DNA from: an uncultured virus (IMG/VR IMGVR_UViG_3300001528_000074)
Lineage: Duplodnaviria; Heunggongvirae; Uroviricota; Caudoviricetes
Length of the DNA: 34,982 nt
Reading direction: 5' to 3' (one strand)
IMG/VR virus record: IMGVR_UViG_3300001528_000074
Position 1 is the stretch's first letter, and each line of letters starts with the position of its first letter. The translations under genes were made by a program, and so were the position numbers. Below the pieces are notes generated by a model. It ran no database searches. It was given only the letters and a program-made list of their open reading frames with translations, and was not told the DNA's origin. Shown piece after piece: positions 2,955 to 18,719 of the stretch.

Positions 2955-3575
2955 TTAGTCTGCTGCGTTAACGTGGATGTTAATTGTTGTATCGCCACCT
3001 TTTCGGTCAAGCTGACGGTAATAAGCGTCCGCATAGGCAGAGTTCTTCTCAGAAGTTGTCTCAATCATCATGGACATCTTCTTAAGATTCTCTGTCAATT
3101 CGTCGATCTTAGCCTTCTCCTTAGCATTTTCCTGATTAAGGAATTCTGCCAACTTCTTACCTGAAGAGAAGTACACATTATTAGTATTAGTAGGATCCTT
3201 CATGAGAGCATCTCGCAAAGAGTCCACTGTTACGTCCTTAGTAAACTTATTGTTTGCTATAGGACAACGAACTTCAATACTGTTACCAGTTTCATCTACC
3301 TGGTCCTTATTAATAACCACTTCATATTCATCAGGATTCAATCCTCGTTCAAGTGTTATACCAGTAATATCGATAGCAAGAACCTTATAACGGTTGACAT
3401 TACGTGTTATAAATATCCCATTATTGTGTTCGGCATGTTCTTTCTGCTGATTATAGTCGGTAATTATTACCTCCTTTGCTGCTTTAAAGATTCTTTTACC
3501 AAAAAGTCCACCGAATGCTGCAAGATTTGGACGATTCTCTTCTACTACCTGAATGTTAATTTTAGTGTTATTCAT
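2955..3575 (-). CDS. hypothetical protein with C-terminal coiled coil
   Basis: 206-aa ORF, tightly packed with the downstream gene. Confidence 0.8.
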   Translation of the reverse strand: MNNTKINIQVVEENRPNLAAFGGLFGKRIFKAAKEVIITDYNQQKEHAEHNNGIFITRNVNRYKVLAIDITGITLERGLNPDEYEVVINKDQVDETGNSIEVRCPIANNKFTKDVTVDSLRDALMKDPTNTNNVYFSSGKKLAEFLNQENAKEKAKIDELTENLKKMSMMIETTSEKNSAYADAYYRQLDRKGGDTTINIHVNAAD

Positions 3576-3579
3576 AATT

Positions 3580-5655
3580 TACTATCCTTTTTGATATCGT
3601 GGTTGATTCCACCAACGATAGTTAATTTACTATGTAGGACTTTCACCTACGTTAATTATTAAAAAAGTTTCTCTCTCTAACTCTTTTTATACTCACATTA
3701 GCATATATTGTAACCTTATATTAAGGCTCGTTTTATTCAATCATGCGCCATTCAGCTTTATATTCCTTTATAATTCTCTCTCGGTATATGAAGCTCAATC
3801 ACTGAATTTGGGAATCCAACGGTAGGATATGCTACGCCCTTGTGTACATGAATCCTGTTACGGCAAAACTACAAAATACAATATACAAATTCAATTGCTG
3901 TTACTAATTTGTGAACTTTAATTTAATTGTTAAAGTACAATATTGACATTACTAAGCGCTCTGAAGTTTCAGGAATCGCAGAGAGTTCACTAGTTGAGTC
4001 TTTATTGTTTAATATAAAATATGTCCGGTTCTGATTGTTTAATGAGCCTAACAGTACCTTTAACGTGCTCACCCATTGATCGGGACTCCTATATTACTAC
4101 GTGCGTGTGTAGCTTTTTACGTGTAGGGTACACGTTTCATTATCGAACAGTCTTTCTCTTCCAGAGGAGATGTGACTCTACGGCTTGTTTATTACTCTTG
4201 GCAAGTGCTTGCCTCATTGTTTATAGTGCTCGAATACTGTATACTTTAAATACATACTATCATAGCCCTCGGTACGCTTTTGCACCCGATTCTTGTGGTC
4301 GTCATAGGCTGTTTATGTTTCAAAACACCCACCTAATCGCCTCTAACATCCTCTATAGAGACAGTATAGACGATGCGCTAAGTATAGGCTTCTACCTCTA
4401 TGCTTTACATATACACTTTCACATGTATACTTTAGGCTGGTTAGCCGTAACGGTTGGCACTCAGTTTCCTCACTTCAGTACTTCCTACTTACAACGTAGG
4501 TTCTTCCCTATGAGGGGACACTAATTTTTATAGTTAAACATGTTAATTACAGTTGATAAGTAGTTTCGCTACTCTGGTCGGTAATCGTGATATCTGCTCA
4601 TACAGGACATATACTCATTTGTACGTCTAACGTAATGTTATGTAGTACTAAGAATATGTAGTATAGGAATCATACATACTTGCCAGCATTAGAGGCTCTT
4701 ATATATTACCGGAATGTAATAACTCGAATCAGTCTAATGTAATATCAAATGTTTTGCGCCTTCAGATATCAGGAAGGCTCTCCTCACATAAATGCTTCGG
4801 ACGTTATCTCGCATTTCTGGATACTCTTTCGGTACAGCCATTAGGTACCTTTTACGAACATCTCTTTAACATCAGTCTTATGTGTGCGGACTCGTGTCGC
4901 TAAGTGTTGCATCCACTTCCTGTCATTCTACTTTTATATACCGCATGAACGACGAAGGCCTGGCGGTTGTTGTATTTGTTTCAGCCGTTTTACCTCATCC
5001 CTGGCTCCCCTTCAATGGAGATGTGCTGAATCGAACAGCAAGGACTTACATAGGCAGCATATTTACGATACACTCCGTGAGTCGATTCTCACGGTCTGAA
5101 GAATATCTATCATTATTCCCAGCAGGTTCTTTCTCTTTCCACATACAACGTACCCTTCATAATGTTAGTTGGTGCTAACGTGAACACTAGTACATGGCAT
5201 TTTACTCAATTTGACACTCATTATGTGTTGGCGTACATAATGTTTCAACTCGTGTAAGTTATGCACAGATTCGTGTCTTAATCTGTGTTTGTCCGATACT
5301 CTTATTCCTTTTGCTCATCTTGAGACTTATGTGCAGTTCTCTGTGTATATCACCAGACGGTTCTCATATACAATGTTGCGCAGTTATACATATCTTTCGA
5401 TCAGAAGGGGTTGAATAAGGTCACTATCCCCTATACAAGTGAGTTTTTCACGCTCATCATGTCTTCCATCCTACCTTTTGTGCTCTATTCTCAAGCATTA
5501 TCGTCATCAGTGATGATTTACATATTCTCAGATCAAGTATAATTTTTCGACGTAGGCTAATGAGACCTACTGTATGTCTAACACCTATTACTATGAAGAC
5601 GTATTCTTTAATAATATAAATAATATCATCCTAAGGCTGGGATTTACTAACGGTT
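3580..5655 (-). ncRNA. candidate large structured non-coding RNA region (~2 kb)
   Basis: No credible ORF; many short hairpins including T-loop-like and GNRA-like loops, plus a long-range complementarity (3601-3610 with 3811-3820). Strand inferred from the flanking genes. Confidence 0.45.
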
Positions 5656-5661
5656 TTCAGA

Positions 5662-6024
5662 TTATTCAGAGCTGTCGACTGCATCATGAATTACATACTT
5701 TCGAGGTATGCTATCTGGAGCTGTTCCCTTCCGAGGCTCACGAGTCTTTATGTACAAGATCGAGACAGTATCTCGTACAGCATATGGCACTCGCTTGGTT
5801 CGTATGACTTGTTTTGTTATTACTTTGGTGTGATGTACAGTGTCTCTTATAGTGTCACAGGGTGTGATCGTATCATGTACCACCTTTTCTACATACTTTG
5901 GTAACTGGAATGGAGGAGATTCCGCTGCAGTTATCGTATTAGTCGGCTCATAATGGATTTTAGCCAATTGTGAACCGAACGCACACATTAGTGCGCACAC
6001 TATTATAGTTGCTGTAGTTTTCAT
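5662..6024 (-). CDS. membrane-anchored/exported protein with repeated D-T/S-I/V motifs
   Basis: Probable start ATG 6024 after the TTATCAAAATG leader; hydrophobic N-terminus; DTI, DTI, DTV, DTV, DSI. Confidence 0.7.
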   Translation of the reverse strand: MKTTATIIVCALMCAFGSQLAKIHYEPTNTITAAESPPFQLPKYVEKVVHDTITPCDTIRDTVHHTKVITKQVIRTKRVPYAVRDTVSILYIKTREPRKGTAPDSIPRKYVIHDAVDSSE

Positions 6025-6159
6025 TTTGATAATGTTATGAACCATAATGCCATACTTCATATTGTTCCTTCATACAGCAGAAGAAACTTTTCAGAGTGTC
6101 TAAAGGATTCCGGATTCCCTTAAACACTCTGGAACGGGTTCTTTTATGCTGAAGTATGG

Positions 6160-7671: not shown

Positions 7672-8043
7672 TCAACTTGTATTAAACGGGTTACAACTGT
7701 CTCCTATATATGTAGGGTTTACAGTTATTAAGGCGTGAGCAGTTTCCTCAGTGATGGGGTTAGCCCATGAGAGATCGATGTCACTGTCAATCTTTATTTC
7801 TTCGTTAGGAAGTATAGCATCAAGATGCATTATACTAATTAACGAAGTCATGGGAGCCTTGTCCACTACTACAGGAACGCTCTTTTTGGTAGGCGTTGTC
7901 AATGCCTTACCAGCTTGCCCACATGCGAAACCAAACAGGAGAGCCATAAGCAACTGCCAAAATAGCTTATTGCTCCTGTTGTAACGAGCGATTGCGAAGA
8001 TCATTATCCCTGCAATCATCAGTGGTAGAAGAGTCGTCAACAT
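7672..8043 (-). CDS. membrane protein with two N-terminal hydrophobic segments
   Basis: LLPLMIAGIMIFAIA and LFWQLLMALLFGFACG segments; overlaps the 3' end of the sigma factor gene. Confidence 0.7.
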   Translation of the reverse strand: MLTTLLPLMIAGIMIFAIARYNRSNKLFWQLLMALLFGFACGQAGKALTTPTKKSVPVVVDKAPMTSLISIMHLDAILPNEEIKIDSDIDLSWANPITEETAHALITVNPTYIGDSCNPFNTS

Positions 8044-8596
8044 GTTCAAGGTTTAAAATTGATTTTATTTTATTACGTACTCTATGAAGTCTCGACTTAA
8101 TAGTTCCCTTGGACACATGGAGCGCCTTACTAATTTCTGCAATAGTCATACCATCTCTATAGAACATGTAAGCAGTATCTCTATACGAGGGAGTTACTTC
8201 TTCCATCATATCTAAGAGCCTTTGATAATAATCGCTATTAACGAGATTGTCTTCAGGATCTACATAATCATCTAAGGAACCTACAAATGTTTCTTCTGTG
8301 ATTGATGCACTGTCTTTGACAGTTCTTAGGTAATCAATTGCTACATTCTTAGTAAGAATTCTTAACCATCCGCCAAATGACGAATAGTCTTTAAATTTAG
8401 ATAACTTAGCATGAACTTTTAAGAATACTATATTAGTAATATCCTTTGCTTCATCTTTGTCTCCTATATAAGAGGTTAACAACTTGTCGACAAATACTTT
8501 ATACTTATTAAACAGTTGTGTAAAAGCATATTCATTGCCAGTTTGCGCCTTTTTGATGATCTCAATCTCCTCTGGGGTAATTTTGGTAATCATCAA
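7967..8596 (-). CDS. RNA polymerase sigma-70 family ECF sigma factor
   Basis: Region 2 (GNEYAFTQLFNKY...EAKDITNIVFLKV...SFGGWLRILTKNVAIDYLR) and region 4 HTH (DGMTIAEISKALHVSKGTIKSRLHRVR). Confidence 0.92.
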   Translation of the reverse strand: MMITKITPEEIEIIKKAQTGNEYAFTQLFNKYKVFVDKLLTSYIGDKDEAKDITNIVFLKVHAKLSKFKDYSSFGGWLRILTKNVAIDYLRTVKDSASITEETFVGSLDDYVDPEDNLVNSDYYQRLLDMMEEVTPSYRDTAYMFYRDGMTIAEISKALHVSKGTIKSRLHRVRNKIKSILNLEHVDDSSTTDDCRDNDLRNRSLQQEQ

Positions 8597-9386: not shown

Positions 9387-9463
9387 TGGAGTGGTAGTGG
9401 GACTCGAACCCACAGTTGTACTGATTACGAATCAGCCGTGTCTTCCATTTCCACCATACCACC
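9387..9463 (-). tRNA. tRNA-Thr (anticodon CGT)
   Basis: GGTGGTA/TACCACT acceptor, GTG..CAC D-arm, GCTGA-TTCGTAA-TCAGT anticodon arm, GTGGG-TTCGAGT-CCCAC T-arm. Confidence 0.8.
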
Positions 9464-9464
9464 C

Positions 9465-9619
9465 GTCACCTCTCGTTGGTGCTACGTGACTTAAATGCGA
9501 TTACTCAAGCAACCACTTACGCTACGCAAGTGTAGTCAACAATGTTATTTACATTGCCAGTTAATTTAAAAATGAGTCTTGTACTTATCTCTGTATATCG
9601 TCAAATCCAATATTCCCCC
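9465..9619 (-). ncRNA. ssrA: tmRNA, coding piece of a permuted two-piece gene
   Basis: 5' end GGGGGAATATTGGATTTGAC; resume context TAACT-GGC; tag ORF 9558-9517 GNVNNIVDYTCVA-stop, with the stop in a hairpin. Confidence 0.8.
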
Positions 9620-9863
9620 TAATAAAAACTACACTATCTTCACAGACCGTGTAGCATGTCTAACCTAAATAAAAAACAAATAATCCAATGACAGATCTTA
9701 TTTTCACAAACTTAATCTGTAATACATAACAAATGCCTAACTAATTGACTTTATAAACAAAATAATATATGTAGGGTGGAGTGGAGTCTCGGCTATAAAA
9801 TTGCTTTTATAGACAAAAAAGAAAATTACGAGTACTGATTAGTTATGTGAGATTGTCCACTCC

Positions 9864-9925
9864 TAGTGGAGGAAGAGGGATTCGAACCCTCGTCCGATAT
9901 ACTCGCATCATACTCAAACGACTCT
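9864..9925 (-). ncRNA. ssrA: tmRNA, acceptor piece of a permuted two-piece gene
   Basis: GTATATC-GGAC-GAGGG-TTCGAAT-CCCTC-TTCCTCC-A-CTA pairs with GGGGGAA to give a G3:U70 Ala determinant; GTATATC pairs with GATATAC of the coding piece. The 5' boundary is approximate. Confidence 0.8.
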
Positions 9926-10351
9926 TAGAAACTATAAGAGCGATCAAACTCTTATAGCATGAGTGTAGAATATGCACAATTGATCAGATTGTACACACTC
10001 TACACCAGATATTTTGTATAGTGACTAAGTTGGTCTAGCCTAATCTTAATATATACTAAAGAACTTTGATGTTGGCGTGTCATCATACGAATCGGCTCAT
10101 GGCTCTCACGCTTAACATGATTCATGCACATTTAACTCCTGTGTTGGAGGTCTCGTCCATACTGGCTCAAGGCTCTTGTATTTCGTGTCAATTCACGATA
10201 TTTCCCTCACGCAGAACTCTTGTCCGGGTCGCTAACCTAATACCGTCTGCCGATCTTGGTACTTACACACGGTTCAAGACTCTAGTGCTGGACTTAAAAT
10301 TTGTATTTGCACCCTTCTTGATATTGTCCTTGATTGGACTAACGGTACGAT

Positions 10352-18075: not shown

Positions 18076-18420
18076 TTACAAATAAGTGTAACTTTCTTCA
18101 GATTTTGTAGACTCTTCTAATCCTACATATCTTGCTGTATCTAGTACAAAGTGTAATGCTTCATGACTACAAGTATTTACTTTTTGTAAGACATCCTTAG
18201 TTTTTATCAATTCATCAGATAGTAGAACTATAGATACACGTTTATTATCTCTATAAACCCCTGTTACTGTAACAGCCCAACTATGATCTTCATCATATTC
18301 AAACTCTATATTATACAATTTCTTTAGTTTTTGCATATCTGGATATCTTACTACATGTAGTTCTATTGGATAAATAGTAGGACTATACTTATCTATAGTC
18401 ATCTTGTTATTACTCTTCAT
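18076..18420 (-). CDS. hypothetical protein with HExxH motif (possible metallopeptidase-like)
   Basis: TCSHEALH followed by EE. Confidence 0.65.
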   Translation of the reverse strand: MKSNNKMTIDKYSPTIYPIELHVVRYPDMQKLKKLYNIEFEYDEDHSWAVTVTGVYRDNKRVSIVLLSDELIKTKDVLQKVNTCSHEALHFVLDTARYVGLEESTKSEESYTYL

Positions 18421-18476
18421 ACTAATTACTTAAGTTATTTGTATATAGTATATTATATATATTATTTTATTATATA

Positions 18477-18519
18477 GTCTTACTAATTAGTAGGTCTTAC
18501 TAATATATTAGTCTTACTA
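18477..18519. repeat. three direct repeats of GTCTTACTA with 17-bp periodicity
   Basis: Copies at 18477, 18494 and 18511 in the AT-rich divergence region. Confidence 0.7.
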
Positions 18520-18570
18520 TTTATATAGTTTATATAACTATACTATATCCCTCTACCCCCTATATCCCCC

Positions 18571-18599
18571 ATAACGGGATATAATAACCAAGTGGTTTC
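18571..18599 (-). promoter_or_regulatory. ECF-sigma-type promoter candidate (leftward)
   Basis: GAAACC-N17-CGTTAT. Confidence 0.5.
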
Positions 18600-18665
18600 A
18601 TGAAAATTAAAAAAATTATAAAAAATTGCAGAAAATAAAAAATTTTAAAAATTTTATATCGTTTT

Positions 18666-18694
18666 GGAACCACTACCCCTAATTTTTACGTTAT
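18666..18694 (+). promoter_or_regulatory. ECF-sigma-type promoter candidate (rightward arm)
   Basis: GGAACC-N17-CGTTAT upstream of ATG 18720. Confidence 0.55.
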
Positions 18695-18719
18695 AGGGGT
18701 GTATTTAAATTAATTTGAT

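Follow-up and report, generated by a model that had tools for sequence, protein, structure and literature searches.

Of the 34,982 nucleotides of DNA from an uncultured Caudoviricetes virus analysed here (IMG/VR record IMGVR_UViG_3300001528_000074; the whole stretch is referred to as the window), a gap of 2,086 bases (3576-5661) is free of genes and, judging by the compensatory base changes among its homologues, very probably gives rise to a functional structured RNA. Our preferred explanation, to which we assign a probability of about 0.5 as a whole, is that the gap encodes one large structured RNA that acts in trans. An earlier inspection of the window by sequence alone (the original prediction) had proposed one very large or several tandem undescribed non-coding RNAs (ncRNAs) at this place; this is supported by covariation, by the lack of an Rfam match and by the absence of a conserved open reading frame (ORF) and of codon periodicity.

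Covariation analysis

For comparative analysis, 22 full-length homologues were used after removal of sequences at least 95% identical, and 19 more were held out. Helices were kept for counting if they had at least three pairs and were at least 80% paired, and the alignment was evaluated in three blocks, with 500 shuffles and slid controls. In total, 187 pairs in 44 helices were 91-96% paired over the 22 homologues, compared with 75-80% in shuffles and 25-52% in slid controls, and 126 of these pairs were changed on both sides. The values for the individual blocks were:

5600-4860: 97 pairs in 23 helices, 90.7% paired (shuffled 75.5%, slid 34-45%), 61 pairs doubly changed versus 39.6 expected
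4859-4080: 67 pairs in 15 helices, 90.7% paired (shuffled 75.1%, slid 25-46%), 49 pairs doubly changed versus 29.9 expected
4079-3560: 23 pairs in 6 helices, 96.2% paired (shuffled 79.9%, slid 36-52%), 16 pairs doubly changed versus 9.7 expected

The percentage paired and the number of doubly changed pairs were reached by 0 of 500 shuffles in each block. Four of the five measures per block were matched by no shuffle at all, and the fifth, the number of further pair types, by 16 of 500 in the smallest block. RNAalifold, supplied with the 22 homologues, placed 46-49 helices between 5569 and 3580, at an energy of -261 for the sense strand; the antisense strand reached -222, and the energies of five column shuffles ranged from -4 to -11.

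As these structures had been derived from the very alignments on which they were scored, a hold-out test was added. The 223-pair structure obtained from the 22 homologues was paired in 3,434 of 3,910 cells (87.8%) of the 19 held-out sequences, with 36-42% for slid controls; among cells differing from the window on both sides, 635 of 747 still paired, versus 38% (standard deviation 2%) upon random re-pairing. Under a model forbidding G-U, the ratio of G-U to A-C in paired columns was 27:16 in the training and 41:18 in the held-out sequences, an excess that identifies the minus strand as the probable folded strand. In the alignments, compensating stem substitutions around constant loops are visible in many hairpins. 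Covariation, named as a check in the original prediction, is hence strong against shuffled and slid controls and is kept in sequences that played no part in building the structure. On this comparative evidence, selection is maintaining about 44 helices and many unpaired motifs.

Coding potential of the gap

The gap lies between the minus-strand genes 5662-6060 and 2955-3575; all genes of the window from 1 to about 18,400 are on the minus strand, which is the sense strand for the gap. Its base composition is ordinary for the genome (GC 0.32-0.44), with a purine-rich sense strand. The earlier observation that the transcribed strand lacks ORFs of 60 or more amino acids (aa) was borne out, with three recodings tried: the largest minus-strand ORF (3923-4072, 49 aa) is the sole one of at least 40 aa, none reaches 60 aa with code 11, TAG=Q or TGA=W, nor does a TAA=Q reading open a long minus-strand frame. 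ORF re-calling with TAG=Q, which had been suggested as a check, yielded no long frame across the gap. Neither is there a conserved ORF in the 22 homologues, where sense-strand ORFs of at least 60 aa are sporadic and differently placed under code 11, TAG=Q and TGA=W.

Mismatches within the RNA core, sorted by position modulo 3, number 690/653/705 (p=0.35) and are without codon periodicity, while the same test on the next gene gives 333/214/853 (p=3e-108), a strong codon periodicity. Indels with a length that is a multiple of three make up 16 of 167 in the RNA core versus 7 of 7 in the next gene. Since indels are frequent and disturb the phase, a patchwork of very small ORFs might escape the phase test taken by itself; both the ORF survey and the pattern of indels argue against such a patchwork. 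The gap is non-coding.

The plus-strand ORF 4021-4524 (167 aa) was considered as an antisense gene and rejected, being open in the window genome only, with 46-131 stop-free codons in the other 21 homologues. Its single PHROG match has an expect value (E) of 0.005 over 16 residues, and the purine bias of the sense strand accounts for an antisense ORF of this length arising by chance. In public annotation, small or antisense 'hypothetical protein' genes are placed inside the gap in L001 (3025-5033), L010 (2807-3289), L011 (3287-3793), L228 (8099-8536) and L253 (4442-4603), with 12 such features beneath the matching region in Dulem virus 42. Neither their place nor their frame is conserved, and they are probably spurious.

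Distribution among crAss-like phages

A sensitive blastn search of the gap against 50,697 phage records matched 9 records, and taxonomy was looked up for 8: seven are Suoliviridae Oafivirinae crAss-like phages, and the eighth, Dulem virus 42, is filed under Caudoviricetes only. In Oafivirinae, the gap measures 2,026-2,224 nt within the same gene order and is either free of annotated genes or spuriously annotated. Gaps at the same position were found in three genomes of Loutivirinae (2,126, 2,148 and 2,148 nt), in Bearivirinae cr6_1 (2,081 nt) and in Uncouvirinae cr114_1 (about 1,850-2,050 nt), so that the locus is present in four Suoliviridae subfamilies. It lies three genes downstream of the sigma-factor gene, in cr6_1 and cr114_1 as well, where the covariance model described below matches at the start of the gap. 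Conserved genes flank the RNA locus on both sides in every genome examined. A 474-aa protein encoded upstream of the gap occurs in 15 phage records; all those with a taxonomy line seen are Suoliviridae crAss-like phages, bar Dulem virus 42.

When 9 kb of the window were compared with distant genera, DNA similarity was almost confined to the gap (blocks 5577-5520, 5367-5240, 5082-4926, 4548-4391, 4257-4087 and 3623-3571), most flanking genes showing none. Block 5082-4926 is the best conserved at the DNA level (77-84% identity), and the flanking 206-aa protein is merely 26-29% identical to its counterparts in cr130_1 and cr131_1. Among moderately diverged genomes, identity is 75-90% in the RNA core versus 66-86% in the adjacent gene, with the core higher in 9 of 9 pairs.

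An nhmmer profile of the Oafivirinae 5' block detected the Loutivirinae at E 3e-22 to 3e-14, and the sequences aligned with compensating changes. A covariance model of the 5' domain (R1; 154 positions, 12 base pairs), which behaves mostly as a sequence profile, was run on whole genomes and matched cr52_1 (Loutivirinae, E 1.9e-20), cr6_1 (Bearivirinae, 1.2e-6) and the Uncouvirinae cr114_1 (2.8e-6) and cr125_1 (6.7e-6). It matched 0 of 5 genomes from other Crassvirales families (Steigviridae crAss001 and cr111_1, Crevaviridae cr127_1, Intestiviridae cr107_1 and cr271_1; best E 0.098-0.54); since R1 holds 12 base pairs only, more distant relatives beyond Suoliviridae may exist. Motifs of the 5' and 3' domains are collinear in Loutivirinae, including GCCAACCG and CCGTAG...TTCGATAA of the 3' domain, and GAGAACCG and TAGTGTT are present in all four subfamilies. 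By these comparisons, place, length and domain order of the locus are conserved across Suoliviridae crAss-like phages.

Beyond the phage records, a 16-letter motif of the 3' domain was found in at least 110 viral contigs, and 38 among the matches listed are truly similar to the gap. With a longer, gapped pattern, 97 metagenome contigs were matched, and 79 of them show genuine similarity; many pattern-matching contigs are 92-103 kb in length, as large as these phage genomes. In bacterial genome bins, the longer pattern matched 5 contigs, four by chance and one by similarity (L127). This 39,490-base contig from a Lachnospiraceae-labelled bin carries the RNA locus together with its flanking genes and is probably a phage contig mis-binned with a bacterium.

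Comparison with described RNA families

Positions 3400-5800 were searched on both strands against Rfam 15 with cmscan at E<=10, with snoR145 as the only hit (E 2.3; 20.6 bits, compared with a gathering score of 57). Searches inside the gaps of six homologues at E<=1 gave no match, and at Rfam gathering scores the whole window contains one tRNA only, which lies outside the gap. In particular, the gap has no Rfam match to GOLLD, ROOL, OLE, HEARO, group I or II introns, RNase P, transfer-messenger RNA (tmRNA) or ribosomal RNA (rRNA), nor to an aptamer. The Infernal/Rfam search that the original prediction had called for agrees with its description of the locus as undescribed.

A search of full-text literature, with subscription journals and supplements outside its coverage, revealed no large ncRNA or conserved non-coding region described in crAss-like phages, in agreement with the lack of an Rfam 15 entry. 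None of the terms non-coding, noncoding, ncRNA, intergenic and devoid occurs in the text of Yutin et al. 2021 (PMC7886860). We rate the locus as a new class within a known kind, the large ornate phage RNAs, and as unusually long and family-wide.

Structural elements

The conserved core spans 5569-4119 (about 1.45 kb), and conserved elements extend to 3581. The elements are, in the order of the sense strand:

3581-5569, minus strand: whole structured locus, from the first conserved hairpin to the hairpin before the downstream start codon
5553-5569, minus strand: first conserved hairpin, with the nearly invariant loop UCUCAUUAG; 97% paired, 3 of 5 pairs doubly changed
5344-5540, minus strand: 5' domain, with helix 5536-5530/5471-5465 and hairpins 5520-5501, 5456-5440 (loop GUGAAAAA), 5432-5406 and 5370-5346
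5151-5335, minus strand: central hairpin set, with 5326-5313, 5299-5275, 5240-5219 and 5192-5151, the last with conserved TAGTGTT and a CCAA loop
4869-5094, minus strand: central domain, with hairpins 5094-5075 and 5074-5056 and junction 5055-4984 holding the T-loop-like hairpin 5040-5024
4962-4873, minus strand: central domain, continued, enclosing 4956-4919 (loop GGUAUAUAAAA), 4918-4901 and 4901-4885
4540-4868, minus strand: variable linker with two covarying hairpins (4779-4763, 4721-4704), the rest poorly alignable
4119-4534, minus strand: 3' domain, with 4500-4484, a multi-branch part, 4213-4200, 4182-4144 followed by invariant GUUCGAUAAUGAAACG, and 4135-4119
4461-4225, minus strand: multi-branch part of the 3' domain, closed by covarying 4461-4457/4229-4225 and 4452-4447/4237-4231 and holding 4430-4409, 4377-4268 and others
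3810-3898, minus strand: two conserved hairpins in the weakly conserved 3' part, 3898-3885 and 3839-3810 (loop UACCGUU)
3660-3668, minus strand: T-run CTTTTTTAA, weakly indicated as a possible 3' end or terminator tail
3581-3622, minus strand: terminal hairpin, covering the stretch AAAAAGGA and ending 5 nt before the ATG of the 206-aa gene

The 5' domain is the most widely conserved part. The hairpin at its end (5370-5346) has an almost invariant 15-nt loop, GAGAACCGUCUGGUG, and two extra hairpins of this domain occur in the window and its closest relatives. Lineage-specific insertions are present in the 5' region of certain homologues (in L084 about 60-190 nt past the first hairpin, and likewise in L010 and L012); that of L084 contains GGTTCGATTCCC, which is typical of a tRNA T-arm. 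The loops of the element include GNRA-type (GCAA/GAAA at 4426-4413) and T-loop-like sequences.

The central domain includes a three-way junction and two of the stems singled out by the original prediction. Both are present: in stem 5040-5036/5028-5024, pairing is retained and 4 of the 5 pairs are doubly changed, and stem 5094-5088/5081-5075 has 5-6 covarying pairs. A third proposed stem, GTAGG-TGAAAGT-CCTAC, exists at 3650-3632 and can be aligned in just part of the family. The TGAGAA-type and CCAAC-type (GTGCCAACCG) motifs pointed out at the same time are among the most conserved letters, whereas the proposed complementarity between 3601-3610 and 3811-3820 did not hold up, amounting to 6 bp in the window and being complete in 7 of 22 homologues with no compensating change.

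Among the 22 homologues, the loop 5036-5028 reads UUCGAUU (11), UGCAANU (6) or UUAGAUU (3), with switches between close relatives, and contains a self-complementary tetranucleotide in 18 of 22 (UCGA in 11, UGCA in 6, AAUU in 1). Self-complementary loops have been reported for intermolecular kissing loops in OLE and GOLLD, and the loop described here shows such a pattern. All variants, among them UUCGA, UGCAA and UUAGA, are compatible with the T-loop label that the original prediction gave to 5040-5024; a symmetric kissing loop would be an alternative and is put forward as a hypothesis.

Terminal hairpin and transcription signals

The terminal hairpin 3622-3581 is 97-98% paired in the 22 phages, with 5 of its 8 outer pairs doubly changed and an almost invariant inner part (TCGTTGGT..AATCAA..ACGATATCAAAAAGGA). 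It occludes the start region of the downstream gene, as in cis-acting control elements, and has the appearance of a protein-recognised translational operator.

A scan of the sense strand inside the gap found no terminator-like site, and promoter-like sites at chance level. Of the 22 homologues, 15 have a T-run 38-154 nt ahead of the downstream motif; in the window, the hairpin preceding it has a dG of -3.4. The Bacteroides-type -7 motif (TAnnTTTG) is absent upstream of the first hairpin in 28 of the 29 homologues that have the hairpin motif. A different recurring motif upstream of the first hairpin was discarded, as in several genomes it proved to encode the C-terminal end of the upstream protein.

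Interpretation and alternatives

The explanation that we favour is that the gap encodes a very large, multi-domain structured ncRNA, read from the minus strand, which would be transcribed with or just after the sigma-factor gene block and consist of three separate domains (5', central and 3') with variable linkers between them. During infection, it would work in trans as an RNA-only or RNA-protein assembly; a scaffold, a cage or a decoy binding a host or phage factor would be consistent with this. The last hairpin of the RNA would occlude the translation start region of the next gene and thereby couple the RNA to the translation of that gene, such that RNA folding or processing could set the level of the 206-aa protein. 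We put even odds on there being one molecule of at least 1.4 kb rather than several. Provided that the structured RNA is functional, a trans-acting assembly and a cis-acting leader appear about evenly balanced; the former is taken as the leading reading by analogy with the ROOL and GOLLD cages. In favour of one unit, total gap length and domain order are constant across the four subfamilies, and no terminator-like site interrupts the sense strand.

Several observations weigh against this explanation. Conservation is blocky, with variable linkers between the domains, and when all pairs of columns separated by more than 150 nt were scanned, complementarity proved conserved but no domain-joining long-range helix had solid covariation except 4461-4457/4229-4225. 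The held-out sequences are 72-91% identical to the training ones, so that the controls overstate independence, and R1, with just 12 base pairs, conveys mainly a sequence signal. The fold of the single sequence is ordinary, with z-scores of -0.58 (matched by 6 of 20 shuffles) and -1.18 (matched by 8 of 100); the description of the region as hairpin-dense was accordingly not borne out for the single sequence, and the case for structure rests on comparison of homologues, not on thermodynamics. There is no recognisable promoter upstream of 5569, a sigma-70-type scan being at chance (10 found versus 9.4 expected) with phage-specific promoters outside its scope, and no consistent terminator, a hairpin with dG <= -8 and a T-run before the next gene being present in 7 of 22 homologues. 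Given the lack of both signals, co-transcription with the sigma-factor block and the downstream genes is possible.

Many of the same observations would suit a tandem set of separate smaller structured RNAs, produced from internal promoters or cut from one precursor. Each would have its own role, and the set might comprise a 5' RNA of about 230 nt, central ones near 200 nt apiece and a 3' RNA of some 420 nt. The blocks of conservation are separated by variable linkers at 4868-4540 and 4118-3900 and not joined by any covariation-supported helix, and across subfamilies conservation is much stronger in the 5' domain than elsewhere in the locus. Block order and total gap length are nevertheless kept in four subfamilies, the gap lacks internal terminator-like sites and has promoter-like sites at no more than chance frequency, and GOLLD-like large RNAs, too, combine well conserved and variable parts, as stated in PMC12286853. 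We consider such a set unlikely, though worth serious weight. A giant cis-acting leader or intercistronic spacer, controlling read-through, stability or translation of the downstream genes and first of all the 206-aa gene, seems rather improbable: the covarying terminal hairpin over AAAAAGGA, the inconsistent terminator between RNA and 206-aa gene (7 of 22) and the location of all genes here on one strand speak for it, but about 1.9 kb and some 44 conserved helices far exceed the needs of any known leader, the most conserved parts are 1.5-2 kb away from the regulated start, and the hairpin at the start codon is explicable alone as a protein operator.

The size range and multi-domain look of large ribozymes, together with the many invariant unpaired motifs in junctions and loops, could also be reconciled with a catalytic RNA or a degenerate mobile intron between genes, be it group I/II-like or a new ribozyme. 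This is very improbable, as no Rfam intron or ribozyme matches the window at E<=10 or six homologues at E<=1, and as the locus sits between complete genes with their own start and stop rather than within one and is fixed at one site family-wide, whereas mobile introns are patchy. We give still less credence to a DNA element, such as a replication origin, a packaging site or another field of hairpins in single-stranded DNA. The locus is in the replication/regulation arm of the genome, and covarying hairpins would form in single-stranded DNA too; however, the cumulative GC-skew minimum and the divergent gene switch are at about 18-19 kb and not at the gap, the roughly 2:1 excess of G-U over A-C in paired columns is indicative of a single folded strand, the loops have an RNA-like character (GNRA-type GCAA/GAAA, T-loop-like UUCGA), and no iteron-type repeats were noted, though no dedicated repeat search was made. 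Scarcely credible, finally, is cryptic coding in the form of many small ORFs, an unfamiliar recoding or a frameshift-broken gene. Small ORFs are annotated in public records (the 12 features in Dulem virus 42), and Crassvirales reassign stop codons; against this, whichever of three codes is used, ORFs of at least 60 aa occur sporadically and at differing places in the 22 homologues, third positions show no bias, 151 of 167 indels have lengths not divisible by three, and the substitution pattern is explained by compensatory changes.

Flanking genes and other features of the window

The genes on either side of the RNA are:

2955-3575, minus strand: downstream gene, 206 aa, no known family; flank, outside the RNA
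5662-6060, minus strand: upstream gene, 132 aa, N-terminal hydrophobic segment; flank, outside the RNA

For the 206-aa protein, an AlphaFold model with a predicted local distance difference test (pLDDT) score of 86.7 shows a beta-rich domain and a long helix. Foldseek found no fold match in the Protein Data Bank (PDB) at E<=0.001, and the best VIA-align match (Z 4.6) is on the long helix; a recognisable RNA-binding fold was not found with either program. The family of the upstream gene comprises proteins of 117-171 aa with a conserved N-terminal hydrophobic segment containing a cysteine (MKKLTTILCS...), which suggests a membrane-anchored or secreted protein. Among the neighbours, Pfam and PHROGs named a sigma factor (7967-8596), ThyX and an HNH protein only.

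Further upstream, a putative permuted (two-piece) tmRNA-like gene was called at 9426-9956 on the minus strand, beside tRNA-Thr 9389-9463 on the same strand, with the tag peptide GNVNNIVDYTCVA according to ARAGORN. The Rfam model tmRNA_permuted scores 30.5 bits here, under its gathering score of 47 (E 7e-4), and 50.3 bits, above gathering, at the matching place in L226 (cr53_1; 1149-1384); 9426-9956 is a probable phage-encoded permuted tmRNA-like gene. At about 18,400-18,700, a divergent switch in gene orientation coincides with the lowest GC (0.31) and the cumulative GC-skew minimum, making this stretch a candidate replication origin or early promoter region.

Relation to known large RNAs and significance

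Apart from ribosomal and intron RNAs, only a handful of large structured RNAs have been described to our knowledge. The host of these crAss-like phages we take to be Bacteroidota, whose translation initiation depends little on Shine-Dalgarno pairing, and occlusion of the start region by hairpin 3622-3581 may for that reason act differently here. Phage translational operator hairpins hide start regions, as in coat-protein or RegA-type repression. The terminal hairpin resembles them in pairing the stretch before the ATG and in combining a covarying outer helix with a near-invariant inner sequence, as expected for a protein-recognised operator; it differs in that no binding protein is known for it, and the likeness covers the last 42 nt of the element only. 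OLE is comparable as a large structured RNA with dedicated partner proteins encoded nearby, as conserved genes flank the RNA on both sides here, but OLE is bacterial and about 600 nt long and its partners are known, whereas the locus has no Rfam match and the flanking 206-aa protein no recognisable RNA-binding fold.

The closest parallels are GOLLD and ROOL. According to PMC12286853, both form RNA-only cages, with a role that is likewise unknown, and the ROOL examined is 659 nt long and GOLLD slightly above 800 nt; like the RNA proposed here, they are phage-encoded and non-coding, with an elaborate covarying structure, many conserved loops and junctions, and conserved as well as variable parts. 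In some genomes, tRNA genes are nearby, and here tRNA-Thr is located 3.7 kb upstream and, in cr4_1 and cr114_1, a tRNA about 1.3 kb downstream. In contrast to GOLLD and ROOL, the candidate does not match their Rfam models and is two to three times longer, with a core of about 1.45 kb and a total of about 2 kb. It also occupies a single syntenic site within one virus family, and the genome that carries it is of the virulent crAss-like type.

Each of the earlier classes (OLE, GOLLD and ROOL) revealed a new RNA architecture, and the present candidate exceeds them two- to threefold in length. If it is indeed one folded molecule, it would extend the size range of natural viral RNA machines. Somewhat more tentatively, we envisage a single RNA of about 1.5-2 kb, as large as a ribosomal RNA and conserved across Suoliviridae, that folds into a three-dimensional machine or multimeric cage with its own role in infection, e.g. 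the capture of ribosomes, RNA polymerase or a defence factor; if so, it would represent a new class without relation to GOLLD, ROOL and OLE, and no larger structured ncRNA would be known from bacteria or phages besides rRNA and the RNAs of introns. For public annotation, the result implies a correction, as several records carry probably spurious small or antisense ORFs in the gap, and the coordinates, alignment and helices given here provide a precise target for study. CrAss-like phages abound in the human gut and are biologically still largely obscure; the Suoliviridae belong to the commonest human gut viruses, and the candidate RNA appears to be present throughout this family.

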